Virus record (IMG/VR): IMGVR_UViG_3300019487_000002
Length of the DNA stretch: 64,000 nt
Strand: one strand, 5' to 3'
DNA from: a virus
The first letter of the stretch is position 1; each line of letters opens with the position of its first letter. The position numbers were made by a program, and so were the translations under genes. Under the pieces are notes generated by a model. The model ran no database searches. It worked only from the letters and a program-made list of their open reading frames with translations, and was not told the origin of the DNA. Of this stretch, positions 11,559 to 60,020 are shown in pieces.

Positions 11559-11972
11559 TTAGTCCTCTATATCCAATAAATTTTCGATCAGTGCGTCTTT
11601 TTCTTCCTGCATGGTCTTTGCAGATATCACCTGCAATTTGCCCTTTAGCAAAGGATAGCTTTTAAACCCCACCCTAGGAACTCTGATTTCGATGACCGGG
11701 TAATCCGGGTTGACAGTGAACCATTGTTCCGTCGTGCGGTCTGAATCTTGTCCTTTTCCTCGGGCACCTACTTTCGTCTCCAATCTTATCACCTGACCTT
11801 CCTGTAGGTCAAGAGAAACAGCCCACCACGATTCACGACCGCGATGGGCTGGGTTAGAAACAAACTCTGCGCCTTCGGTATTGGCACTTAATTCTTTCTC
11901 GTCGAGAGTTATCTTGACGATATAGCCTTCCTTGAAGGACTTCTTGAAACCGTATAAAGCGAAAACTTCCAT
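11559..11972 (-). CDS. hypothetical protein
   Basis: 137-aa ORF with ATG at 11972. No SD and no promoter-like hexamers are visible upstream. Confidence 0.6.
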   Translation of the reverse strand: MEVFALYGFKKSFKEGYIVKITLDEKELSANTEGAEFVSNPAHRGRESWWAVSLDLQEGQVIRLETKVGARGKGQDSDRTTEQWFTVNPDYPVIEIRVPRVGFKSYPLLKGKLQVISAKTMQEEKDALIENLLDIED

Positions 11973-12212
11973 GAAGTAAGTTTCGTGACTACCGACGACG
12001 GCTGTTCAAGCAGAAGCTACTTGGTGTTTCGCCTTGCGGTTTTTCGATTCGGCTTTCCCCCGTGTGTCTTAACCACCGCCAAGCGGTACTCAAGCAAGGT
12101 GGGTCCAGCTACGCAGCTATTTACGCCATCAGAGATTAGGCCGATGGTATCTTGATGTACGTAGTGAACCCGGGGATACGGGCACACAAGGTACTGGAGT
12201 CACGAACTATAC
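11973..12212 (-). ncRNA. candidate structured RNA element, class unknown
   Basis: 240 nt without an ORF in an otherwise gap-free operon. The ends are complementary (11982-11990 with 12198-12206), and there are at least 6 internal hairpins (e.g. 12169-12182, 12126-12147, 12076-12086, 12107-12118, 11992-12001), plus a GCAA tetraloop closed by CC/GG at 12032-12039 (minus-strand sense). Confidence 0.4.
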
Positions 12213-12437
12213 TTAGTTCTGAGAGCCGCCAGCCGCAGCAATCGGAGCCTCGGCAGCATCAGCCTGCTCGAAAATGAACGTAGCGAGTAGACGGATGCGG
12301 TCACTCTGGCTCTTAGTCGCGGTCAGGCCGGTGACACCGAAGGTCTCCAAGTCCTTGAGGAGCGCATTCGAGCGCGCCCGAGCCCTGGGGTGCAACTGCA
12401 CGCCTTCGATATCGGTTGGTACTGATTTGTTAGCCAC
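12213..12437 (-). CDS. hypothetical small protein
   Basis: 74 aa. GTG start 7 nt after AAGGAGA; own consensus promoter upstream; G+C-rich relative to its neighbours. Confidence 0.6.
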   Translation of the reverse strand: MANKSVPTDIEGVQLHPRARARSNALLKDLETFGVTGLTATKSQSDRIRLLATFIFEQADAAEAPIAAAGGSQN

Positions 12438-12470: not shown

Positions 12471-12499
12471 ATTATAGATTAAAACTTACTTCGCGTCAA
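12471..12499 (-). promoter_or_regulatory. sigma70-type promoter
   Basis: Minus strand reads TTGACG-N17-TATAAT, about 27 nt upstream of the SD and start of the 74-aa gene. Confidence 0.6.
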
Positions 12500-12853: not shown

Positions 12854-14467
12854 CTATAACTGTTCGGCGAAGGTACGAATGAATTTCCAATCCTCAATAG
12901 ACTTCACTACGTCGCTATGCCCATTTGCGCCTTGCTGTAGACGCATGAGATACGATGGATGGAAAACGGGAATAAAAGTCACTCCCGGCCAATCATTGTG
13001 GTGATGAGGAATTCCCCGTGCTGAAGAAATTTTCTCGCCTTCGGGGAAAATAGCTTTGAAAGCCTTATCGCCGAGCAAAATTACCAGCTTAGGATTGACT
13101 AAACGGATATGCGCTCTGAGGCGAGGATTACACGCCGCGATTTCCTCTGAATCTGGAGGACGAATTTCGCCCGCTTCATTCGGAAAACACATAACGACAT
13201 TGGCGACGTGAATACTAGAACGCGGGATTCTTGCACACGCCAATAAAACTTTATCGAGGTACTTTCCAGCTTTTCCAATAAAAGGATCACCGTAAAAATC
13301 CTCGCTTGGCCCAGGCCCTTCCCCTAGAGCCATTATATTGGCGCGTTGAGGGCCAGAAAACTTCACAATCTTATTGCGGACTTGGTGTAGCTTGCAGCGT
13401 GTGCAATCACCCCAAATTTCGAATAGTTCGTCAAGTGTCTGTGCTGAGGCAAGCCTATTTTCGAGAGAATTGTCCACCAAATGCGTGCGAAGCTCGTTAC
13501 TGACTTTCTTGAGTTCGTAGGCATCTACGAATTGCTGTACTTCGATCCAGTCGATTGCAGGCGGGGTTTCCCATTGCTGCTTAAAGATTACCCGTTGATC
13601 TTCGTCTAACTGGTCGGGGTGTGACAATACATAGGACAATTCGTATGCCAGCTTGATTTGTTCTTCGTACTCAGGAATACGGCTCATGACAGCGGTTTTT
13701 GGTGATTTCGTCGCCTCTTTAAGCACGTCTTGTACCGTGCCACAATCACGAACCAGCTTAAGGGCTGTTTTTTCGCCGACACCGGGGACACCGGGAATAT
13801 CGTCGTTGGTGTCTCCCATCAACGCCTTAACATCAACCCACTGGCTCGGTTGAATCCCATATTTAGTCACGAAGTCTTGTAACGTGAAATGCTTTTTCTT
13901 AATTGGGTCATATTGCGATACTTTATCAGAAAGTAGCTGGTACAAATCCTGGTCAGAAGACACGACTACCACGTTTGCTGTTTCGCTTAAAGCGTCAGCA
14001 GCAATGCCAATCAAATCGTCACCCTCTACTTCGTGAATAACTAGTTGAGTCACTCCCAGATAGGGAAGAATGCTCTGAATAGCATCCATTTGCGGGAGCA
14101 TTTCTTCTTGGAATACGCGATGGTCTTCGTTTGTGCGACTCTTGTATCGACTCTCTTTATATTGAGAGGGGGTTTCACCAAGAATCTTCGCAGCCGTCGA
14201 TTCTGGATCGCGGCCAGCAAGTCGCTCTAGGCGCTCACGGTAATTCTTAAGAATACGCCGACGGTAGCGGGATTTATGGTCCCAGGCTACATACACTTTT
14301 TCTGGCTCAAACTGTTTTAGGATATGACAAAAGGATGAGAGAAAACCGTGAATAAGTCCCGAAGGAGTCCCATCTTTTGTTTTGAGCGTTTGGCCGCTTG
14401 TTGTGTGCCAAACTCTGTGGATCAGGTGATTTCCGTCGAAAATTACGTTGGTTTTATCGGCGGGCAT
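12854..14467 (-). CDS. 5'-3' exonuclease (FEN) fused to family-4 uracil-DNA glycosylase
   Basis: N-terminal FEN/PIN domain with H3TH motif GVPGVGEKTALKL. C-terminal UDG4 motifs CTRCKL, GEGPGPSEDFYGDPFIGKAGKYL and FHPSYLMR. The start at MPADKTNVIFDGNHL (14467) is preferred over track position 14536. Confidence 0.8.
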   Translation of the reverse strand: MPADKTNVIFDGNHLIHRVWHTTSGQTLKTKDGTPSGLIHGFLSSFCHILKQFEPEKVYVAWDHKSRYRRRILKNYRERLERLAGRDPESTAAKILGETPSQYKESRYKSRTNEDHRVFQEEMLPQMDAIQSILPYLGVTQLVIHEVEGDDLIGIAADALSETANVVVVSSDQDLYQLLSDKVSQYDPIKKKHFTLQDFVTKYGIQPSQWVDVKALMGDTNDDIPGVPGVGEKTALKLVRDCGTVQDVLKEATKSPKTAVMSRIPEYEEQIKLAYELSYVLSHPDQLDEDQRVIFKQQWETPPAIDWIEVQQFVDAYELKKVSNELRTHLVDNSLENRLASAQTLDELFEIWGDCTRCKLHQVRNKIVKFSGPQRANIMALGEGPGPSEDFYGDPFIGKAGKYLDKVLLACARIPRSSIHVANVVMCFPNEAGEIRPPDSEEIAACNPRLRAHIRLVNPKLVILLGDKAFKAIFPEGEKISSARGIPHHHNDWPGVTFIPVFHPSYLMRLQQGANGHSDVVKSIEDWKFIRTFAEQL

Positions 14468-14660
14468 TGCGGCCTTTCTTGCGATTCTTTCGGCACTTAT
14501 CAGTGCAATACTTGCGTACCGTTTGTCCTTTTTCACATTCGGCAGTTATCATAGGAATAATGATTCCACTGTTACACGTCTCACAAATACCAACAACGTC
14601 AACAAGAGGCGACCCTCCTCTGACTGAAACTGGAACCGTTATAAGCTGGTCTTGATTCAT
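14454..14660 (-). CDS. hypothetical Cys-rich protein
   Basis: 68 aa with CETC...CTDKCRKNRKK and a basic tail. Confidence 0.5.
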   Translation of the reverse strand: MNQDQLITVPVSVRGGSPLVDVVGICETCNSGIIIPMITAECEKGQTVRKYCTDKCRKNRKKGRNARR

Positions 14661-16010: not shown

Positions 16011-16357
16011 TAGAACCTCTTTCTGTCTTGTAGGTAATCAGGTAGCTCAAGCACGACGCATCGCTTTCCGGTCTTGCGGTCTTTGACCGTGCGGACAAAT
16101 TCAAGTTTACTGATACAATTCCCGCCAGCGGTGAAGAATTGCCGGAAATCCGCGTGGAACGTCGGCATGACTTCAAGAGCCCGATGGGGAATGCGCTCAC
16201 CGTGCTCTACCGCGACGCTACGAGCCTGTTGCTCAATATAGGCCGCGTCTCTTTCGGACATGGGCGGGTTGGCGACTTTGAATGCGGTGTAGTGTGGTGC
16301 TTCCGCAAGCTCATGAACCCGGTCGTTGAGTACGAAAATGACGGTGTTAAATCCCAT
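16010..16357 (-). CDS. hypothetical protein
   Basis: ATG 16357 is preceded by GAGGA (track start 16408). Confidence 0.55.
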   Translation of the reverse strand: MGFNTVIFVLNDRVHELAEAPHYTAFKVANPPMSERDAAYIEQQARSVAVEHGERIPHRALEVMPTFHADFRQFFTAGGNCISKLEFVRTVKDRKTGKRCVVLELPDYLQDRKRF

Positions 16358-16550
16358 TCTTTTCCTCGAATAAGGCAAGTGTGTCGATATACGCCTGGGT
16401 ATCTTCACCCTCGATAAGAATTAAGGCTGCATTCGCCTTTCCCCTCTTATCAAAGAGGACGACTTTAGCACTCGCAGCTTCGCTCTCCCGCAAGATTGCG
16501 AGGAGAGCTTCTGCCGCCGCGCCAATTTTTTCCTTCTTGAAGACTTCCAT
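16347..16550 (-). CDS. hypothetical protein
   Basis: 67-aa ORF abutting the upstream gene. Confidence 0.5.
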   Translation of the reverse strand: MEVFKKEKIGAAAEALLAILRESEAASAKVVLFDKRGKANAALILIEGEDTQAYIDTLALFEEKNGI

Positions 16551-17068
16551 TAGTCCTTGAGAACCACCGGGAGCACGTCGCTCGCCATGAAGGCGCCAAT
16601 CTGGCCCTTGTACTCGCCAGCCACGCGAACGCTCACCTGTAGCGGGGCCTCACCCGTCTCGTCGCGCTTGATAAGCGCACTGAGGGTCTCTGCATCAACT
16701 ACCTTGGCGAGTGCCTCCTTGTTCACCTGCGAGATAAGCTCGACCAGATCACCCGCGTTGAGCTTGCCGTCAGCAAACAACTCAGCAACCTTCTGAGCAG
16801 CCGCCTTGTTGTCGAGGCGCTCGGGCTGCGAGAGAATCACCGTGGCAATGCCTTCGACCTTGGGATTGCTCCCCTTCTCGCCGACGTTGATCGTGATGGG
16901 GCATTCGTCAGCCGTCAGGTAATCCTCAACAGCCTTGCGAGCCTCTGTGTACTTCGCATCGAAGAAGTCAGCCGCAACCGACAGAGTGGCCGCCCGCTCG
17001 GTAAGCTGGACAAACTCACGGAAACCCGGCTTCTCAACTGCCTTCTTGCCCTTCTTTACGATAGCCAT
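16550..17068 (-). CDS. hypothetical protein
   Basis: ATG 17068 lies 11 nt after AGGAGG; about 172 aa, A/E/K-rich. Confidence 0.6.
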   Translation of the reverse strand: MAIVKKGKKAVEKPGFREFVQLTERAATLSVAADFFDAKYTEARKAVEDYLTADECPITINVGEKGSNPKVEGIATVILSQPERLDNKAAAQKVAELFADGKLNAGDLVELISQVNKEALAKVVDAETLSALIKRDETGEAPLQVSVRVAGEYKGQIGAFMASDVLPVVLKD

Positions 17069-20885: not shown

Positions 20886-20894
20886 GAACCTCAT

Positions 20895-20924
20895 GGCAAC
20901 CCCGGGAATCGTCCCGGGGTTGCC
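20895..20924 (+). terminator. perfect 13-bp G+C-rich hairpin, possible U-tract-less terminator
   Basis: GGCAACCCCGGGA, loop ATCG, then TCCCGGGGTTGCC, 10 nt after the ATPase stop. No T-run follows. Confidence 0.4.
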
Positions 20925-20942
20925 TGGAAATGAGAAAAGAAA

Positions 20943-21071
20943 ATGAATAAGCGAATCGCCAAGAAGATTGTCAGCAAGACTTTCAATCGTGATGGCTCGC
21001 TCAATCGTACCCCGTCGTGCTATTACACGAACGACCAGATCAAGCGATCAAGCGAGCACTGCGAAAGCTAG
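20943..21071 (+). CDS. hypothetical small protein
   Basis: 42-aa ORF (MNKRIAKKIV...), not in the track because it is below the 60-aa cutoff. Confidence 0.35.
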   Translation: MNKRIAKKIVSKTFNRDGSLNRTPSCYYTNDQIKRSSEHCES

Positions 21072-21079
21072 GTAAGTAA

Positions 21080-21352
21080 ATGGACCTTGAAGATATTCTT
21101 CATGGAACCCCAAAATGGAACGACGTTTCATTTTATTTCCAGAATGGGGAATTCTTCGAGGAGCACTATCTGGTAGAGGCTATCACAAAGCATCTGCTAA
21201 CCCCACCCCAGCGTGCTTGGCTGCATCGTGAGGCTCTAAGCATAGAAGATATGCTTAATGGCCGAATTGAAGGCAATCTTCGCCAAAAGTACGCACAGCA
21301 AATTTTTGACGAATGGAACCAAAAGCTGGGGTTTAAGCATTTCGGGGCTTGA
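21080..21352 (+). CDS. hypothetical protein
   Basis: 90-aa ORF. Confidence 0.5.
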   Translation: MDLEDILHGTPKWNDVSFYFQNGEFFEEHYLVEAITKHLLTPPQRAWLHREALSIEDMLNGRIEGNLRQKYAQQIFDEWNQKLGFKHFGA

Positions 21353-23257: not shown

Positions 23258-23402
23258 GACTAAGATCATTGTCAGTGCGCGGTTTGACGAAGCCAAAAAG
23301 AAGGCCGTAGTCGAGTATCCCGACGAGAATCAACCAGAGCAGGTTTTTTTCTGCCCCGATTGTGGAGAGCCTGCCGTTCCTGACCATCGTTGCCCCGCGT
23401 GA
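23238..23402 (+). CDS. hypothetical small zinc-ribbon protein
   Basis: 54 aa starting MNERRRK and ending CPDCGEPAVPDHRC. Confidence 0.4.
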   Translation: MNERRRKTKIIVSARFDEAKKKAVVEYPDENQPEQVFFCPDCGEPAVPDHRCPA

Positions 23403-24214
23403 AGGATTCCCTTGGCGATAGGATGAAGGGATATGAACGGGCGCACCTTTCGCGTGCGTTGCCGGGTATCCCTGTTTGCGCCCGACTAGATGGCCGAGCT
23501 TTCCACAGTTGGTGCAGCGATTTGCACCGCCCGTGGGATAACAGCTTCCATCAGATTATGGACCGAGCTACGGCTTTTCTTGTAGAACAGACTAATGCCA
23601 AGATCGGCTATACACAGAGCGATGAAATTACGCTGATTTATTACGCCGATTCTCCTGAATCGCAAATATTCTTCGACGGAAAGATTCAGAAGATGACAAG
23701 CGTTCTAGCGTCCATGTGTACGGCAAAGTTCAACGAGGCTGCACGCCTTTTTCCTGATACTACACATAAGCCTTTAGCATTTTTTGATTGCCGTGTGTGG
23801 CAAGTCCCCAATCTCCGGGAAGCCGTCAGTGTACTAATTTGGAGAGAGGCAGACGCTCGACGCAATTCGATTATGATGGCGGCGCAAAGCTTCTATAGCC
23901 ATAAACAGCTTCTTGGGAAAAGTTCAAAAAAACAGCAGGAAATGCTACACGAAAAAGGCCTCAACTGGAGCAAGGAATACCCTGACCGATTCAAGCGCGG
24001 CGCATATTTTGCTCGCCGCATGGGTTATCGCGTAATGACCATGAGCGAGTTCTCACACATTCCTGAGGCACACCGCCCTGCGGCTCCACCTTTGGTTGAG
24101 CGCCGCGTCGTGAAGAACTTGCAGCTTGGTCCGATGCGACGTATCGTCAATAGTATTGACGTTGTTTTCAACGAAGCGGAGCCGGTGTATGGAACCTGTA
24201 ACGAGCACCCATAG
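23390..24214 (+). CDS. Thg1-like protein (tRNA-His guanylyltransferase family, 3'-5' nucleotidyltransferase)
   Basis: GDRMKGYE, ARLDGRAFH, YTQSDEITL, FDCRVW and WREADARRNS line up with Thg1/TLP conserved blocks. The start is TTG 23390 or GTG 23399, upstream of the first ATG. Confidence 0.8.
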   Translation: MPRVKDSLGDRMKGYERAHLSRALPGIPVCARLDGRAFHSWCSDLHRPWDNSFHQIMDRATAFLVEQTNAKIGYTQSDEITLIYYADSPESQIFFDGKIQKMTSVLASMCTAKFNEAARLFPDTTHKPLAFFDCRVWQVPNLREAVSVLIWREADARRNSIMMAAQSFYSHKQLLGKSSKKQQEMLHEKGLNWSKEYPDRFKRGAYFARRMGYRVMTMSEFSHIPEAHRPAAPPLVERRVVKNLQLGPMRRIVNSIDVVFNEAEPVYGTCNEHP

Positions 24215-25268
24215 AGCCGATATTGTAGAAGTTGTGCTTGGGCCGCACCCCAATGCCGATAGCCTTTCTATCGTCAAAATCTACGACGGTGGTTTTCAGG
24301 TTATTGTCAAAACCGAAGATTGGGTAGAGCGATATCGAGGCGTTTACATTCAGCCAGATAGTATTGTCCCCGACAAGCCTGAATTTGCCTTTCTAGAAAA
24401 GCGGCGAATCAAAGCCAAGAAATTGCGAGGCGAATGGTCCGCTGGCCTTCTTGTTCCTGTTCCACCGGAGTTTGAGCATTTGGAAACGGGCACTGATTTG
24501 GCTCCGCTCATGGGGATCGAACATTATGAGCCACCGCCGTCCATGCCCGGCCTAACGGGTGGTCTGACCGATTCGAGTCCAAAGTTCATCCGCAAGCAGC
24601 GAAAAGATGGAAAGTATGATGCGGAATTTATCGGCTTTGAATACCCGAAATACGATGTAGAGTCTTTTCGGAAATATGGAAAGCGGGTATACGAACCGGG
24701 TGAAATCATTTGGATAACAGAAAAGATACACGGCTCTAACGGTCGTTGGCTTTTCGACGGTAAACGGTTTTATTGTGGGAGCCGCACCGAATGGAAGAAA
24801 GAAGACCCACAGAACCTTTGGTGGCGTGCCCTCAATTATTACCCCACTCTTCAAGAATTCTTGAAGGCAAATCCTGGCGTGGCGGTGTATGGAGAAGTAT
24901 ACGGACAGGTACAGGATTTGAAATACGGAGTCCCAAAAGGGGAAATTCGAGTCGCAGTGTTTGATATCTTGCGGGAAGGAAAATGGATAAACGCGCTGGA
25001 GGCATGGAAGATAGGAAAGGATAATGGCTTGCCTTGGGTTCCCCTTCTTATGGGTGCAACCTATGACAGTCTCCCCGAGCCTGACTTGCTGCCTCGATTC
25101 GATTTTGACATGCTGATTGAAATGGCAGAAGGCCCGAGCCAGATTCCCGACGCGAACCATATTCGAGAAGGTATTGTCGTGAAGCCATGGGAAGAACGTT
25201 GGCACCCTAAAATGCAAGGACGTGTCTGCACCAAAATTGTAGGCAATGGGTATTGGGCAAGAAAGTAA
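24189..25268 (+). CDS. ATP-dependent RNA ligase with N-terminal OB-fold tRNA-binding-like domain
   Basis: Motif I ITEKIHGSN (KxHGxN, as in Rnl2/Rnl5-type ligases). The N-terminal HPNADSLSIVKI...IQPDSIVP resembles the Trbp111/EMAPII-type OB domain. ATG 24189. Confidence 0.75.
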   Translation: MEPVTSTHRADIVEVVLGPHPNADSLSIVKIYDGGFQVIVKTEDWVERYRGVYIQPDSIVPDKPEFAFLEKRRIKAKKLRGEWSAGLLVPVPPEFEHLETGTDLAPLMGIEHYEPPPSMPGLTGGLTDSSPKFIRKQRKDGKYDAEFIGFEYPKYDVESFRKYGKRVYEPGEIIWITEKIHGSNGRWLFDGKRFYCGSRTEWKKEDPQNLWWRALNYYPTLQEFLKANPGVAVYGEVYGQVQDLKYGVPKGEIRVAVFDILREGKWINALEAWKIGKDNGLPWVPLLMGATYDSLPEPDLLPRFDFDMLIEMAEGPSQIPDANHIREGIVVKPWEERWHPKMQGRVCTKIVGNGYWARK

Positions 25269-32748: not shown

Positions 32749-33161
32749 CTCGTCTGGAATCTACAGGCTCCAAGAGAAAAGTGTTTGTCCTTTACTCTTG
32801 GGAAGATTTTGAAAATGATCTTCGACAGATCAAAGTATTTCTTGAAGGTCGAAGTAGACTCTACACCGGAATTTATGCAATTCCCAGAGGCGGGCTGGTC
32901 TTAGGCGTCAGGCTGTCTCATGAGTTGGATTTACCGCTTATCTATGGCGGTGTAACGTCAGATACGTTAGTAGTAGATGAAATCGCGGACACTGGGGATG
33001 CCCTTCACCCATATTTGAAGAAGTGCGATACCATTGTTCTGCATCGAAATATTCGTTGCCCGATAAAGCCTACATTTTGGGCGCAGGATTCTGATGGATA
33101 TGTTATTTATCCTTGGGAATCACGAACGAGGGAAATAGAAAGATGCTCCATAGAGGATTGA
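32745..33161 (+). CDS. purine phosphoribosyltransferase-like
   Basis: PRPP-binding motif LVVDEIADTGDAL; 138 aa. Confidence 0.7.
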   Translation: MTRLESTGSKRKVFVLYSWEDFENDLRQIKVFLEGRSRLYTGIYAIPRGGLVLGVRLSHELDLPLIYGGVTSDTLVVDEIADTGDALHPYLKKCDTIVLHRNIRCPIKPTFWAQDSDGYVIYPWESRTREIERCSIED

Positions 33162-34213
33162 CGTTTGATGACGTTTTATTGGTCCCAAACTATAATGACT
33201 TCCGTTCACGTTCAGCCGTAACGACCATTGCTTCGCTCGACCGGCTTACTTTTAATATTCCAATTATAGCTGCAAACATGGACACCATTTGTGGTGCCGA
33301 AATGGCCCGCAAAATGTGGACATTGGGCGGATTAGGAATAATCCATCGGTTCATGCCAGTGGATCAGAACGTTGAAGAATACAAGAAAGCCGCCGAGCCT
33401 ATTTATTATGGACATTCTGCAAGAGGATATCTTGTTCCTTCTCATATGGATACACCTATCATCGGCGTGACTGTCGGTGTCAACGAAGGCTTAGAACGGG
33501 CAGAAGCGTTATATACCGCCGGCGCGTGGTTATTCTGTGTAGACGTAGCCCATGGGCACTCTCGCCTAACAGGTAAGATGGTCAAGGCTTTACGGGAGCG
33601 ATTCAATCAGGAAATCTTTATTATCGCTGGGAACGTCGCTACTTACGCAGGTGCCGATTACTTAGCTGGATGCGGTGCCGACGCTATCAAAGTTGGCATC
33701 GGCCCTGGTTCAGTTTGTACCACGCGCATGAAAACGGGATTCGGTGTTCCACAGATAACAGCCATTATGGAATGCAGTCGGTCACGTCGTCCTATTATTG
33801 CTGATGGTGGGATGCGTTCTCCCGGCGATGTAGTCAAAGCTCTTGCAGCCGGCGCCAGTATGGTTATGCTCGGTGGTATGTTGGCTGGAACATTAGAAAC
33901 CCCCGGCGAGGTTATATACCCAGAAGGGGAAGGTCCGGTTGGGCCAATAAAGGTCTTCCGAGGCATGGCTTCAGAAGAAGCCCACAGCGATTATTATGGG
34001 GATTTGCCTGATTGGAAAACAGCAGAAGGCGTGAGCATTACAGTACCGGCCCGTGGTAGCGTTGAAGAAGTCGTCAAGGACGTTGTGGGCGGATTACGTT
34101 CGGGCTTGACGTATTGCGGTGCATCTAATGTAACTGAACTACAGAGCAGAGTCGAATTTATAGAAGTTACGCGAGCGTCTTATGTCGAAGGTACACCCCA
34201 TGGCAAGCAATAA
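33143..34213 (+). CDS. GMP reductase-like (IMPDH/GMPR family, no CBS insert)
   Basis: [12 protein letters not shown], catalytic loop [14 protein letters not shown], and [22 protein letters not shown] 33143 follows GAGGGA. Confidence 0.8.
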
Positions 34214-46845: not shown

Positions 46846-48047
46846 TGGCGAAGAAGACGATAGCGGTTTACGCAGACACCCCCACGGTCTGCACCGGATT
46901 TGGAAACGTTACCAAAAGTATTTTCACTAATCTTGGTGATGAATACGAGATTAAAATTGTAGGTATTAACTACAATGGGTATCCTCATAATTACCCTAAT
47001 CTGAAGATTTACCCAGCGTGTAATCCCTTGTATGTAGGCGGCGGCGTAGATTACTACGGTAGAGAACACCTAAAGCGTTGGGTAGAAACTGAACACTTTG
47101 ATCTATTCTTCATGCTCAACGACGGATGGCTTCTTCGTGATTTTGCACCAGACGTGGTAGAACGCATCAAGAAGAAAGGGAAAAGTATTCCTACTGTCTG
47201 TTATTTCCCTATCGATTGCGATGAGACCGAAGGCGCGTGGTATGATTGGATGATGGACGTGGAAGTCCCTGTGACGTACACAGAATTCGGCCTGAACATC
47301 GTGAAGAAAATATTTCCTGCTCTGGGACTAAGAACAAAAGTAATCCCTCACGGCGCGGACGTTGACACGTTCAAGCCAATCCCACGCGGTTCCGATCAGA
47401 AAGTTGCTCATTATCGCAATCTCGTAGGGGGAGAGTTCGCGTTCATCAACGTCAACAAGAATCAGGTTCGTAAGAACGTACCCGGGTCTATTGCGGCCAT
47501 GCGAGAGTACCAACGCATGATTGATAATGGCGATACTATGGTTCTTCACATGAACGAAGAAGAAGGTGTGGGATGCCACGTTCGAATAATTGCGAACAGC
47601 CTCGAATTTCAGAAGAAGAACACAATCCGTATTTCCCCTGCTCGATTGGATGAGGAACATCTTAACTGCATGTATAACGCTTGCCAAGTAGCTATGACTA
47701 CTTCCGCAGGTGAAGGATGGGGATTGAGTATTTCCGAAGCTATTTGTGCGGGGATACCAGTTATTGCTCCTCGGCACACGTCTTTCCCTGAGGTAGTCCG
47801 TGAGTTTGGATATCTCTATGATCCTGGGATGCGTCATTGTGCATTACCTCTTAGTACGGATAGAAGCAATTGGCGATATTACGCCGATCCAAAAGTCGTC
47901 GCTGAAGCGATGCTCGACGTGCGTAAGAACTATGTCCGCTACAAGGAAATGGCCCTTAAAGGTCGGAAGTGGTATGAAGAAAACCGGACATGGAAACATC
48001 ATATCGTCCCTGAATGGAGAGAGTTGTTTGCTCAACTCATGTCATAA
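46845..48047 (+). CDS. GT-B glycosyltransferase (family 1/4-like)
   Basis: SAGEGWGLSISEAICAGIPVIAP (E-x7-E motif). Confidence 0.8.
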   Translation: MAKKTIAVYADTPTVCTGFGNVTKSIFTNLGDEYEIKIVGINYNGYPHNYPNLKIYPACNPLYVGGGVDYYGREHLKRWVETEHFDLFFMLNDGWLLRDFAPDVVERIKKKGKSIPTVCYFPIDCDETEGAWYDWMMDVEVPVTYTEFGLNIVKKIFPALGLRTKVIPHGADVDTFKPIPRGSDQKVAHYRNLVGGEFAFINVNKNQVRKNVPGSIAAMREYQRMIDNGDTMVLHMNEEEGVGCHVRIIANSLEFQKKNTIRISPARLDEEHLNCMYNACQVAMTTSAGEGWGLSISEAICAGIPVIAPRHTSFPEVVREFGYLYDPGMRHCALPLSTDRSNWRYYADPKVVAEAMLDVRKNYVRYKEMALKGRKWYEENRTWKHHIVPEWRELFAQLMS

Positions 48048-56091: not shown

Positions 56092-56165
56092 GGGAGCATA
56101 GCTCAGGTTGGTAGAGCTACCGCCTTTTAAGCGGAAGGTCGCAGGTTCGACCCCTGCTGCTCCCA
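56092..56165 (+). tRNA. tRNA-Lys (anticodon UUU)
   Basis: Manual cloverleaf: a 7-bp perfect acceptor stem, D arm GCTC/GAGC, anticodon loop CTTTTAA, T arm GCAGG-TTCGACC-CCTGC, discriminator A. Positions 27:43 form an A-A mismatch. Confidence 0.9.
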
Positions 56166-56181
56166 CTAAAGCACTCGCGTA

Positions 56182-57135: not shown

Positions 57136-58299
57136 ATGAGTGACTTTTGGAACATACGAGTAGAAAATGGTATGCGGCTTATTACGCCGTCGCACTCTGC
57201 GGCGGTCGGGAATGCGGCATGGTCCCGCGACAATCTGTGGTGGCGCTCGCGTGTCGAGACGGTCAAGGGTGAACTTGTTTCTCAGGGCTTTGGAAAGTTT
57301 TTCAACCTGGGGATGGGTCCGCTCGATCTGAATATTGGTCTTGCAGACGTAGCGAAGGCGGTAGATCGTGGAGACGCCTTGGCGACTCTCAAGCTGGATG
57401 GATCGCTCCTCATTCGATCGGTGTATAAGGGGAAGGTCATACTCCGCACGCGGGGCTCGTTTACCTATGAGCACTTGGACAATGCATTCGAAATGGAGGA
57501 GTTCAAGCGCAAGTACCCGCTGCTTTTCGATCCGATCTTTGCGTATAACTACTCTTTGCTTCTGGAGTGGGTATCTCCTAATAACGTAATTGTTATTAAG
57601 TACCCCGAGCCTGAGCTTGTGATCGTCGGCGCGGTAGACCACCGCACTATGTCGTATGTGCGAGCAGAGGAATTGAAGGCGTTCGCGGAAATGACGGATA
57701 TGACGGATATGAAGATGGTTGATTTCTTCCCTTTGACCAAAAAGGGCTGGGAAGATTTGTATGCGAATCTCGACTCCAATCATGAGGTTGAGGGATACGT
57801 CATTCGCCTGAATAACGAGCAGCGTCTTGTTAAGGTCAAGTGTGCGCCGTATCTGACGAAGCATTCTCTTAAGTCGCGCCTGGATTCGGAGACACTCGCG
57901 GATATGTATTTCCAGTACGGCCGCCCTGACTTCTCGGGATTTGTTACGGAGTTTGGAAAGTCCTTTGACGAGGAAGTCGCTATGTGGGCCATGCCGGCGA
58001 TTGCTTCGTTGTATGATGGTGTTCGTGAGCTTAACGCTATCGAGCGTCATATTACGGAAAAGGTTGCAAAGCGTCGTGAGGGGGGTCTTTCTCGGAAAGA
58101 GTTTGCTATCGTGACGCAAAACGAGTATGGTAAGACGAAGAAGTTTGCATTCGCCATGAACCTGTTTCTTGGGATTCACGGAGACAAGAACGATAAGCTT
58201 CTCAAGTCGATTCTTTTGCAGAATACAAAGCAGATTGAAATGTCTTTCTTGAAGGCCGGTCGGGATGATCTAGAGCCTGATGATGGCTTGGAGGTTTAA
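57136..58299 (+). CDS. rnlA: T4 Rnl1-type RNA ligase
   Basis: FGKFFNL, motif I LKLDGSL, LEWVSPNNVIVIKY, EGYVIR and VKVKCAPYLTKH are collinear with T4 RnlA blocks; 387 aa. Confidence 0.85.
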   Translation: MSDFWNIRVENGMRLITPSHSAAVGNAAWSRDNLWWRSRVETVKGELVSQGFGKFFNLGMGPLDLNIGLADVAKAVDRGDALATLKLDGSLLIRSVYKGKVILRTRGSFTYEHLDNAFEMEEFKRKYPLLFDPIFAYNYSLLLEWVSPNNVIVIKYPEPELVIVGAVDHRTMSYVRAEELKAFAEMTDMTDMKMVDFFPLTKKGWEDLYANLDSNHEVEGYVIRLNNEQRLVKVKCAPYLTKHSLKSRLDSETLADMYFQYGRPDFSGFVTEFGKSFDEEVAMWAMPAIASLYDGVRELNAIERHITEKVAKRREGGLSRKEFAIVTQNEYGKTKKFAFAMNLFLGIHGDKNDKLLKSILLQNTKQIEMSFLKAGRDDLEPDDGLEV

Positions 58300-58661: not shown

Positions 58662-58745
58662 GCCGGTATGGCGGAATTGGCAGACGCAGAGGATTCAAAA
58701 TCCTCCGCCTTAAAAGGCATGGGGGTTCGACTCCCTCTACCGGCA
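58662..58745 (+). tRNA. tRNA-Leu (anticodon CAA), type II with long variable arm
   Basis: Manual fold: acceptor GCCGGTA/TACCGGC, anticodon stem GAGGA/TCCTC with loop TTCAAAA, variable arm GCC-TTAAAA-GGC, T loop TTCGACT. Confidence 0.9.
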
Positions 58746-58749
58746 CTCT

Positions 58750-59043
58750 ATGAGTAAAAGAGAACGTGAGCGAAAGTATTACTTAGAAATTCGCAAGCGA
58801 GTAATGCATTGGTTGGGTAAGGTCTGTGAAAGGTGCGGAGAAAAAGATTTTCGTGTCCTTCAAATATCGCACTTCAAACCGATTAGAAGGAAAACTCGTA
58901 CTTCATCCGACAGTGGAAGCGCCTTAGTTCGATTCCTTAATAAAAAAGGACAGAGTTATACGGTTAAGAATTTTCGATTATTGTGTGCTAACGATCACTT
59001 ACGTAGGACATGGGAAAACGGTGAGTGGTGTAATAGAAAATGA
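58750..59043 (+). CDS. HNH-like endonuclease
   Basis: [13 protein letters not shown] and [11 protein letters not shown]. It starts 4 nt after the tRNA-Leu. Confidence 0.65.
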
Positions 59044-60020
59044 CTCATAGCAAAGCCTACCAAATCCTTGGGCTTGAATCGGGAGCTAGCTCGGAAGATA
59101 TTCAGAAAGCATTCCGGCGGCTTTCTAAAAAGTATCATCCAGATAAGAACGCGGGAAGCAAGGAAGCAGAAGAAAAATTCAAAGAACTCAACGAAGCCAA
59201 GGAATCCCTACTCTCCAAGGACGGTTCCATTCGAGACGAGGAAGACTACTTCTCGGCACAGATGCGGGAGTACCAAGATACCGCTTTTGAGCATCTATTC
59301 CGTAACATGACTTCGCGCTCCCGCGCTGGGGATGATTTGCACCACATTCTCGAAATTACGCTAGAAGAAGCCGCATTAGGAGGGATGAAAACTTTCACTA
59401 CTATGCGGCTAGTAAAGTGTGAGCCTTGTCATGGGCGAGGCGGGACAGGGGAAGAAGCGTGTAATCAGTGTGGCGGACATGGGCATACGGCATCTACGAT
59501 GGGCTCGATATTTATGCAGCAAGTCTGTTTTGTCTGCCAAGGTCGTGGTTCACAGATAAAAAGCAAATGTAGCGTGTGTAGAGGAGAAGGACGCTTTCCA
59601 AAGGAAGAAGTGGTGACGGTTCAACTCAAGCCAGGGATAGATGATGGATTTACGCTAATGAAGCGAAATTCCGGCCATGCTGGCAAAGATGGAGGCCGCC
59701 CCGGTAACTTCTTTGTGCATATCGTACAGAAACCCCACTCCACATTCCAAAGAGACGGATTAAATCTTAATACGGAAATTGCTATTCCCTTTCACCTAGC
59801 AGCACTTGGGGGCGATATTGAAATTCCGACGTTAGTGGGACCGAAGGTGAAATTGAAAATTCCACCCGGTACACAACCAATGACAGAATTTCGTTTGCAA
59901 GGGAAGGGCATTCAATGCGATAGTGTTACCGGAGACCTAATGGTTGCTGCTCGGGTTGAAATACCCACCGTTTTAAGCGATAAGCAAAAAAGGCTTCTAA
60001 AAGAATTTGCGAGGTCATAA
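59040..60020 (+). CDS. dnaJ: DnaJ-type co-chaperone
   Basis: J domain [14 protein letters not shown]. Four CxxCxGxG repeats ([32 protein letters not shown]). C-terminal substrate-binding domain. Confidence 0.85.

Follow-up and report, generated by a model that had tools for sequence, protein, structure and literature searches.

A conserved, folded RNA at a coupled stop–start junction in a phage operon, with a closing helix that may preserve translation of the downstream gene

The 240 nucleotides at 11973–12212, minus strand, of the window (that is, of the whole 64,000-nt stretch of DNA analysed here) appear, from comparison with related sequences, to form a conserved, folded sense-strand RNA without a known family. 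The fold is conserved and under selection, the insertion lies at a translationally coupled junction, and the helix that closes the RNA joins the stop codon of the upstream gene to the downstream gene's start codon. We suggest that the RNA may be a looped-out module whose closing helix preserves the termination-coupled translation of a downstream gene that lacks a Shine-Dalgarno (SD) sequence, a role to which we give slightly less than an even chance. A structure joining stop and start, and a downstream start with neither an SD nor a promoter, are both present. A preliminary description of this DNA listed several functions; of these, a translation element serving the downstream gene has the best support, since the insert lies between a coupled stop and start that the predicted closing helix would place side by side again.

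The phage is large and uncultured, and the insert lies in its replication block; DNA of the window is present in cave and soil metagenomes. Genes of the block encode a FEN-UDG fusion, an SNF2 helicase, RNR, PrimPol-D5, ThyX, a DNA ligase and PolA, together with two RNA ligases and a Thg1-like enzyme. All of the genes surrounding the insert are on the minus strand, and they are as tightly packed as the preliminary description had stated: where neighbours on the same strand do not overlap, the gap between them is at most 48 nt. The small upstream gene, which encodes 74 amino acids, does have the promoter of its own that had been assigned to it (TTGACG-17-TATAAT at 12499–12471), and an SD also precedes its GTG start at 12437. 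This promoter is conserved in two related loci, L002 and L004, and would be expected to transcribe the 74-aa gene, the insert and the downstream 137-aa gene together.

The start of the downstream gene, ATG 11972, had been described as having neither an SD nor a promoter, and reading of the sequence confirms that no SD precedes it. No promoter was found within 11973–12212 of the window copy or within the insert in L002 and L004, and no terminator was found in the window copy; an intrinsic terminator or attenuator, in the form of a G+C-rich hairpin followed by a U run, has no such site within 11973–12212. The marks of an independent small-RNA gene, a promoter and a terminator of its own, were seen neither in the window copy nor in L002 or L004. 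The start of the 137-aa gene is fixed by the N-terminus of its product, (V/I)FAL(Y/F)GF, which is conserved among relatives. Neither the 74-aa nor the 137-aa protein has a match in Pfam or PHROGs. Structure prediction for the 137-aa protein gave a poor model (pLDDT 63.6), with no meaningful match in the PDB and no informative Atlas cluster, and the sole match of a 154-aa gene further downstream is a PHROG of unknown function.

The features of the region are given below in window coordinates. Position p of the insert in the sense direction corresponds to window coordinate 12213 − p, and H1 to H8 are the helices and hairpins of the consensus fold.

12471–12499, minus strand: sigma-70-like promoter, TTGACG-17-TATAAT, ahead of the 74-aa gene
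12213–12437, minus strand: upstream 74-aa gene; GTG start, SD AAGGAG; no family assigned
11973–12212, minus strand: structured RNA insert of 240 nt, supported by folding, covariation, conservation and a covariance model
12198–12215, minus strand: 5′ arm of H1, including the stop codon TAA (12213–12215); core UUCGUGACU at 12198–12206; invariant in six variants
12183–12191, minus strand: 5′ strand of H2, CCUUGUGUG; closes a large inner domain; three pairs with two-sided changes in L002
12101–12171, minus strand: long helix H3 (sense positions 42–55 with 98–112) and apical H4 (sense positions 63–90)
12068–12094, minus strand: hairpin H5, CUUGA.G.UACCGC UUG GCGGUG.G.UUAAG
12058–12066, minus strand: 3′ strand of H2, CACACGGGG, from the consensus fold and covariation
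12031–12053, minus strand: A-rich segment with a CC-GNRA-GG hairpin (H6); near-invariant although mostly unpaired
12007–12023, minus strand: variable hairpin H7, CAAGUAG CUU CUGCUUG
11991–12002, minus strand: invariant hairpin H8, GCCG-UCGU-CGGU, directly abutting the 3′ arm of H1
11970–11990, minus strand: 3′ arm of H1; core AGUCACGAA at 11982–11990; runs into the start codon ATG (11970–11972)
11559–11972, minus strand: downstream 137-aa gene, without an SD; no family assigned

The 137-aa protein falls into eleven clusters at 90% identity among 5.8 billion proteins. Five loci in which this protein is 93–95% identical to that of the window (L002, L004, L005, L006 and L007) carry a homologue of the insert, 245–254 nt long, at the same place; two others, L070 and L071, are identical to the window. 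The comparative set comprises six variants, 76–97% identical across the insert, which amount to about four distinct haplotypes, with L002 and L005/L007 contributing most of the covariation. Indels of 2, 4 and about 13 nt distinguish the variants, and no reading frame is open in all of them. The claim that the 240 nt carry no ORF on either strand fails when taken literally, because two 56-aa ORFs with GTG starts lie inside the insert, at 12017–12187 on the minus strand and at 11985–12155 on the plus strand; what holds is that none of the frames is uninterrupted in all six variants. On this ground the insert was judged not to be coding. The same lack of a conserved frame leaves the notion that the region is a decayed protein gene, against which the RNA interpretation was to be checked, without support.

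Further copies were sought widely. BLAST, and a covariance model built from the six copies, found no second copy in the window or in any of the fetched loci; within these sequences the insert is single-copy and belongs to one narrow lineage. No homologue was detected in GenBank phages, either by DNA or by the 137-aa protein, nor in IMG/VR by two flanking proteins, protein alignment and two conserved words of the insert, and protein alignment against JGI metagenomes gave only two relatives, both insert-less. An invariant 18-mer has 56 matches in prokaryote genomes (one per species), which were rejected as chance because the similarity ends after 20–50 nt. Reads of four metagenome DNA runs contained no new variants, X3 and X4 being of the L002 and L007 types, respectively, and X1 probably being the sample from which the window derives.

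The supposition that the RNA matches no family is upheld: no Rfam model matches over the insert even at E ≤ 10. At the gathering threshold, 4227 Rfam covariance models find two tRNAs only in the whole window; at E ≤ 10, a search that covered the insert region, the L006, L007 and L011 loci and the insert region of L002 gave nothing over the insert. No tRNA or tmRNA was found at the insert. A retron msr-msd was considered and rejected: terminal repeats are present, but the downstream 137-aa gene, which has no assigned family, is also found without the insert, and no reverse transcriptase domain was found among the 28 window proteins scanned.

The sense RNA of the window copy has a minimum free energy of −86.4 kcal/mol (z −3.89), and none of 200 dinucleotide shuffles folds as well. 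The antisense RNA folds at chance level (z −1.09), and in five of the six variants the sense strand folds better than its complement. When 3190 overlapping 240-nt windows of the 64-kb stretch are compared with correction for composition, the insert has a z of −2.8; only ten are more extreme, and a 372-nt gap at 20886–21257 folds even better than the insert. The fold of the insert is therefore unusual but not unique.

Pairing between the two ends, as originally described, is exact, with TTCGTGACT at 11982–11990 complementary to AGTCACGAA at 12198–12206; it extends to a 17-nt imperfect inverted repeat, and the terminal inverted repeats of the insert match at 13 of 15 positions. Copies of the 240-nt type have 11–14 end-to-end pairs, against 2.1 in shuffles (p 0.003–0.02). 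In the RNAalifold consensus, H1 encloses a domain closed by H2, which holds H3/H4 and H5, followed by H6, H7 and H8, and the fold of the window copy is kept. H1 itself is 17–19 bp long with bulges and encloses an independently folded body; its 5′ arm has a pair probability of 0.9 when the flanks are no longer than 20 nt. The hairpins listed in the preliminary description survive in part. CCATC/GATGG, CCGC/GCGG, CCG/CGG and CC-GCAA-GG are present in the conserved consensus; CCCG/CGGG, GTAC/GTAC and AGCT/AGCT are absent from it, their bases being unpaired or otherwise paired.

Comparison of the variants adds weight to this fold. Across the six, 98.1% of cells are paired in the consensus. Two-sided compensatory changes are seen at seven pairs; column shuffles give an average of 1.7 ± 1.1, and none of 500 reaches seven. 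Kinship among the variants can inflate such a test, but controls in which the partner is slid by 1–3 columns retain that kinship and yield 0–2 covarying pairs. In H2, L002 has UUCUGGGUG/CACUCAGAA where the window has CCUUGUGUG/CACACGGGG; H4 contains three covarying pairs and H3 one. At the apex of H4, three versions that differ in sequence and length sit on a retained stem; where H7 would be, L005 and L007 have another hairpin instead, CGCGG ... CCGCG. The GNRA loop is GCAA in the window and GUAA in L006. H5 shows one-sided changes only, which an alternative CCACC/GGUGG pairing would also fit.

H1 never covaries. It is invariant apart from one change from U-A to U-G, which is wobble-compatible and accounts for one of the four variable columns of the 3′ arm; two of the others are bulges, and the last is an A-C mismatch seen in the window copy only. 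Over the insert as a whole 71% of columns are invariant. The fraction is 75% for paired columns (101 of 135) and 66% for unpaired columns (65 of 99), and 47% for the four-fold sites of the flanking genes (42 of 89). Covariation, together with invariance above that of four-fold sites, indicates, on the basis of some four haplotypes, that the insert is under purifying selection, in part for base pairing of the sense strand. The earlier proposal of a structured RNA read from the minus strand thus stands, borne out by strand-specific folding, by compensatory changes in five diverged copies and by conservation above the neutral level. Conservation and covariation, which were to be looked for in related genomes, are both present there.

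Relatives in which the 137-aa protein is 60–76% identical to that of the window lack the insert. In these, stop and start codons overlap (TAATG in L008, L009 and L012; GTGA in L003) or nearly touch (TAATATG in L001; a stop-to-start spacing of +5 nt in L010), and no clear SD precedes the 137-aa homologue in any of them. Because of this arrangement, the ancestral junction was in all probability one of tight termination-coupled translation of an SD-less gene. The copies of 240–254 nt form one clade, and the insert appears to be a gain in that clade, placed exactly between stop and start.

The closing helix places these two codons opposite one another. The stop codon of the 74-aa gene lies in the base of H1, and in the consensus fold its U, A and A are matched with two U residues and the first base of the AUG. 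In single-sequence folds, pairing of stop with start is seen in five of the six variants, compared with about 5% of shuffled inserts. The exception is the window copy: there the helix is displaced by a few bases, owing to an additional UA and to a C at −1, and the stop codon is unpaired.

Other phages of the group carry different sequences at the same junction. Homology of these to the 240-nt insert was rejected, as the covariance model finds neither. A 53-nt insert in L072 and L073, two loci found through the 74-aa protein, folds with a z of −4.9 into a small three-way structure whose closing helix pairs UAA with UU and the A of the AUG, like that of the 240-nt type. A 135-nt insert in L011 folds with a z of −3.9; its closing helix of 11 bp begins six bases past the stop codon and ends ten before the AUG. 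The first ~10 nt of the L011 insert resemble the 240-nt insert.

All three of the non-coding inserts with readable DNA (53, 135 and 240–254 nt) are closed by a stem. By the coarse count of end-to-end pairs, p is about 0.2 each for L011 and L072, so that closure is individually significant only for the 240-nt type; by the test of stop–start pairing, two of the three independent inserts are positive, with a chance expectation of about 5% each. In P0006, from sample SRR16971108, about 138 extra nucleotides are in frame with the 137-aa homologue and encode a LAGLIDADG-like motif, YFAGLFDGEGTIGIY, which falls below threshold against Pfam LAGLIDADG_1 (E 0.094). With states of 53, 135, about 138 and 240–254 nt at one and the same place, the junction is a hot spot for insertions.

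These features suggest how coupling might persist. A single transcript from the promoter at 12499–12471 would contain the 74-aa ORF, the insert and the 137-aa ORF; H1 would loop out the 240 nt and sequester the SD-less AUG opposite the stop codon. A ribosome arriving at the stop codon would have to melt the 5′ strand of H1, and melting would free the AUG at the place where the ribosome terminates, whereby coupling of the 137-aa gene would outlive the insertion. Either of the coupling models, RNA unfolding or re-initiation, would apply. From the modelled fold we infer that coupling works through the closing helix. That the second gene depends on ribosomes finishing the first is suggested by the ancestral overlap of stop and start without a clear SD, and no alternative route to expression of the 137-aa gene was found as an SD before ATG 11972 or as an internal promoter (window, L002 and L004). 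A tight interior fold would also spare the long untranslated stretch from being naked RNA, and in our own view such compactness may protect it against Rho and nucleases.

The predicted ensemble depends on how much coding sequence is included. With at least 30 nt of coding flank, H1 gives way to a hairpin that forms locally around the stop codon (GAACUA/UAGUUC), and the AUG region pairs with downstream codons; in energy, the two alternatives differ by only about 3 kcal/mol. In vivo, the coding flanks carry ribosomes.

A plain looped-out spacer leaves two things unaccounted for: the conservation of unpaired segments (66% of columns invariant, compared with 47% of four-fold sites) and the retention of 240 nt where 53 nt serve elsewhere. 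A broader and more speculative proposal is that bridge helices are a general and hitherto undescribed way for phage operons to tolerate or host non-coding cargo of up to about 250 nt between coupled genes, the terminating ribosome being passed over the loop, and that the cargo here is a new functional RNA class, with a ribozyme-, riboswitch- or RNP-type fold and tertiary contacts; we regard the two parts taken jointly as doubtful, though worth entertaining. For the 240-nt cargo considered by itself, there is a fair chance that it represents a new functional RNA class.

It is possible instead that the insert gives rise to a processed, stable non-coding RNA, in which case H1 would be a processing stalk. 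Cleavage would free the interior of about 200 nt as a trans-acting RNA or RNP component, and little leader would then remain on the 137-aa mRNA. A bulged helix of 17–19 bp around an independently folded body is what such a stalk might look like, and the conservation of unpaired positions and the kept GNRA loop would fit tertiary contacts or a protein partner. The lack of a promoter and terminator of its own is also compatible with processing, since any discrete RNA must then be cut from the operon transcript. Against this, no antisense target above chance was found in the window, where the best complementarity is 16 of 18 nt (E 0.8), and the insert is single-copy and confined to one narrow lineage. 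The 53-nt insert, moreover, has the same closing geometry around an interior too small for a non-coding RNA. We consider the reading as a whole unlikely.

A riboswitch-like sensor would make similar use of the closing helix. A junction closed by H1, acting as a P1 helix, might bind a metabolite, an ion or a protein, and binding would stabilise H1, thereby controlling whether the 137-aa gene and those coupled after it are translated. The 3′ strand of the closing helix abuts the start codon, the junction strands are conserved, and the peripheral H4 and H7 are variable; the length of 240 nt also lies within the size range of the large riboswitch classes. The position of the stop codon argues the other way, for it belongs to a translated ORF and lies inside the closing helix, so ribosomes would open the helix whatever the ligand. 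Even at E ≤ 10 the 4227 Rfam families yield no match, and the downstream genes give no clue to a ligand: the 137-aa protein has no match in Pfam or PHROGs, and for the 154-aa protein the one match is a PHROG without an assigned function. The insert is too narrowly distributed to reveal the broad conservation that riboswitches typically show. Gating of translation by a ligand therefore seems distinctly unlikely.

The insert might also be the relic of a mobile element, or a passenger, in a permissive intergenic hot spot: an intron without an ORF, a remnant of a homing-endonuclease cassette or a MITE-like palindrome, with no function for the phage beyond leaving coupling intact. The four insertion states at one junction agree with such an origin, as do the 13 of 15 matching positions in the terminal inverted repeats and the LAGLIDADG-like motif of P0006, subthreshold as it is. 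Free-standing homing endonucleases are known to occupy sites between conserved phage genes (PMC2988022), and provide a precedent for intergenic placement. A group I intron was weighed seriously because of the size of the insert and its patchy presence, and was rejected on several grounds. There is no covariance-model match at E ≤ 10; by manual mapping, the topology, in which H2 encloses H3/H4 and H5 and is followed by H6–H8 inside H1, does not correspond to that of the intron; and no P3/P7-like pair, and hence no pseudoknot of that type, was found among all conserved complementary segments. The candidate exon-guide hairpin, GAACU/AGUUC, pairs the U of the putative 5′ splice site with A rather than G, and the flanking ORFs, which splicing would join, are separate genes in all relatives. 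Group II introns likewise give no match at E ≤ 10.

A MITE or palindromic repeat was rejected too, even though inverted repeats are present. No target-site duplication was seen at the insert ends, and searches of the window, the relatives and three public collections revealed no second copy. Covariation and conservation above the neutral level, finally, speak against a decaying relic. Taking these points together, we judge a mobile-element origin of this kind improbable.

Lack of any function is very improbable. The insert would then be a tolerated non-coding leftover, its structure the product of chance and of shared ancestry among a few close sequences. With six variants and about four haplotypes, kinship may indeed inflate the shuffle tests, and ten other 240-nt windows fold equally well or better for their composition. 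The slid-partner controls, which keep kinship, nevertheless give far fewer covarying pairs than the true pairing; whole hairpins have been exchanged for other hairpins; and invariance reaches 71% for insert columns, whereas four-fold sites of these genomes show 47%. A DNA-level site, whether the origin of replication that the preliminary description had also offered or a site for single-strand initiation or recombination, is scarcely credible: although the insert sits among replication genes (FEN-UDG, SNF2 helicase, RNR and PrimPol-D5) and its hairpins could form in single-stranded DNA too, the fold needs the G-U pairs of the transcribed sense strand and the opposite strand folds at chance level, direct repeats and iterons are absent from the insert, its G+C content of 52% is above that of the flanks and not AT-rich, the cumulative GC-skew minimum lies elsewhere (near 16–18 kb), and relatives replicate without the insert. 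Strand asymmetry, covariation and conservation make both of these last readings unlikely.

Translational coupling is thought to fail when more than a few tens of nucleotides separate stop from start. Here three unrelated inserts (53, 135 and 240–254 nt), each closed by a helix, occupy one coupled junction without an SD. If the helix carries the ribosome across, as we favour, the known coupling distances would be extended several-fold. If true, this would also supply a simple rule for how non-coding RNA or mobile DNA can settle in dense phage operons without polar damage, and it would offer a compact natural part for operons with an embedded RNA cargo. Structured RNAs without a family in uncultured phages are, in addition, a source from which new ribozymes and riboswitches have tended to emerge.

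Several known systems share features with the insert. In RNase III stalks, such as those of T7 early mRNA, rRNA precursors and the intervening sequences of 23S rRNA, a helix is formed from the flanks of a folded RNA within a longer transcript; the 23S intervening sequences are lineage-specific inserts that are excised. The helix described here differs from these in that it carries a stop and a start codon, and no match of the insert to a family, by sequence or by structure, was found. The lysine and cobalamin riboswitches resemble the insert in having a P1-type closing helix that abuts the start, conserved junction strands and variable peripheral hairpins. Unlike them, the insert has neither an Rfam match nor a candidate ligand, and its place is after a translated ORF and not within a 5′ leader.

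With phage group I introns and homing-endonuclease cassettes the insert shares the size of an ORF-less intron and patchy presence at a fixed intergenic site, and the LAGLIDADG-like remnant at the same junction in one relative adds to the likeness to the cassettes. It differs from group I introns in lacking a model match, a P3/P7 pseudoknot and a G-U pair at the 5′ splice site, and in its intergenic location.

The closest parallels are with translational coupling and with split ribosome-binding sites. In genes VII/IX of phage f1, in the coat-lysis pair of MS2 and in rpmI-rplT of E. coli, the start codon is locked in a structure that the upstream ribosome opens (PMC12548453), and the same is proposed here. 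Under the RNA-unfolding and scanning models, coupling is documented at spacings of up to +52 and +62 nt (PMC12548453), whereas stop and start are here +240 to +254 nt apart. What inhibits the AUG by pairing with it would also differ, being the region of the stop codon on the far side of a folded insert.

In phage T4, hairpins in genes 38 and 25 loop out 22–27 nt and so unite translation signals (PMC3014915). Like the insert, these split sites bring distant translation signals together through RNA structure, in an intercistronic position (the gene 26-25 junction) and in one sub-lineage (PMC3014915). The T4 hairpin bridges an SD and an AUG; here a stop and a start are bridged, with no SD, and 53–254 nt are predicted to be looped out in place of 22–27. 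The largest of the inserts at the present junction has, in addition, a conserved multi-helix interior of its own. Structure-mediated translational coupling and cis-acting phage RNAs are already known as kinds, and the insert is a variation on them.

The junction between the stop of the 74-aa gene and the start of the 137-aa gene, which holds the 240-nt structured element in the phage, carries other inserts in homologous loci of metagenome contigs. The features recorded at this junction and in the genes near it are:

L072:2723-2775 and L073:1237-1289, the same 53-nt insert, flanked by the 74-aa and 137-aa homologues
L011:1088-1222, a 135-nt insert occupying the site of the 240-nt element
P0006 residues 1-45 (SRR16971108 contig), the N-terminal extension of a 137-aa homologue, containing the LAGLIDADG-like motif YFAGLFDGEGTIGIY
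Window 11783-11851, minus strand, a hairpin and a promoter-like site within the 137-aa gene
Window 12854-14536, a FEN/5'-3' exonuclease fused to a UDG-superfamily (PF03167) domain, found also in L001-L005, L070 and L072

The 53-nt insert is unrelated in sequence to the 240-nt element. It is predicted to fold stably (z -4.9 against shuffled sequences) into a small three-way shape, whose closing helix would pair the UAA stop with UU and the A of AUG. The L011 insert differs in sequence from the other inserts at the junction, has a predicted fold z of -3.9, and is closed by an 11-bp helix, GU.GUGGCGGG/CCCGCCAC.AC, in which the dots mark one C-C mismatch. Its 5' end (AUAGUCGUG) resembles the beginning of the 240-nt element; the covariance model built from six copies of that element gave no match to the insert.

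The P0006 extension may be the remnant of a homing endonuclease at the junction used by the inserts; its match to Pfam LAGLIDADG_1 is sub-threshold (E 0.094).

At 11851-11819 (minus strand), within the 137-aa gene, lies a terminator-like 14-bp hairpin with a weak U run, and immediately after it a promoter-like TTGACC-18-TAAGAT (11812-11783, minus strand). Each is kept in L002 and L004, and both fall within the codons for PAHRGRESWWAV. Either chance within the coding sequence or an attenuator and promoter internal to the gene could account for them. The FEN-UDG fusion is kept as a single ORF in every fetched relative that spans the locus, including where the neighboring 137-aa gene is only about 60% identical.

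Elsewhere in the window, the following were recorded:

20886-21257, a 372-nt gap separating a MoxR-like ATPase gene from a DUF2201 metallopeptidase/VWA gene
23390-24214, a Thg1-like enzyme
24126-25268, an RNA ligase of RNA_ligase/OB type
33113-34213, an IMPDH/GMP-reductase-family gene
56092-56166, tRNA-Lys(UUU)
57136-58299, a T4 Rnl1-like RNA ligase
58662-58746, tRNA-Leu(CAA)
59040-60020, a DnaJ homologue

The 372-nt gap, which ranks first in the window-wide fold scan, has very stable folds for either strand (z -6.1 and -5.4). Directly after the ATPase stop it opens with a perfect 13-bp G+C-rich hairpin, and it may comprise a terminator and an additional structured region. The same scan showed 240-nt windows unusually stable for their composition (z about -3.3) at 16281-16680 and 47161-47440, both on the minus strand.

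The two RNA ligases, one of them T4 Rnl1-like, form with the Thg1-like enzyme and the two tRNAs a set rich in RNA-repair functions.
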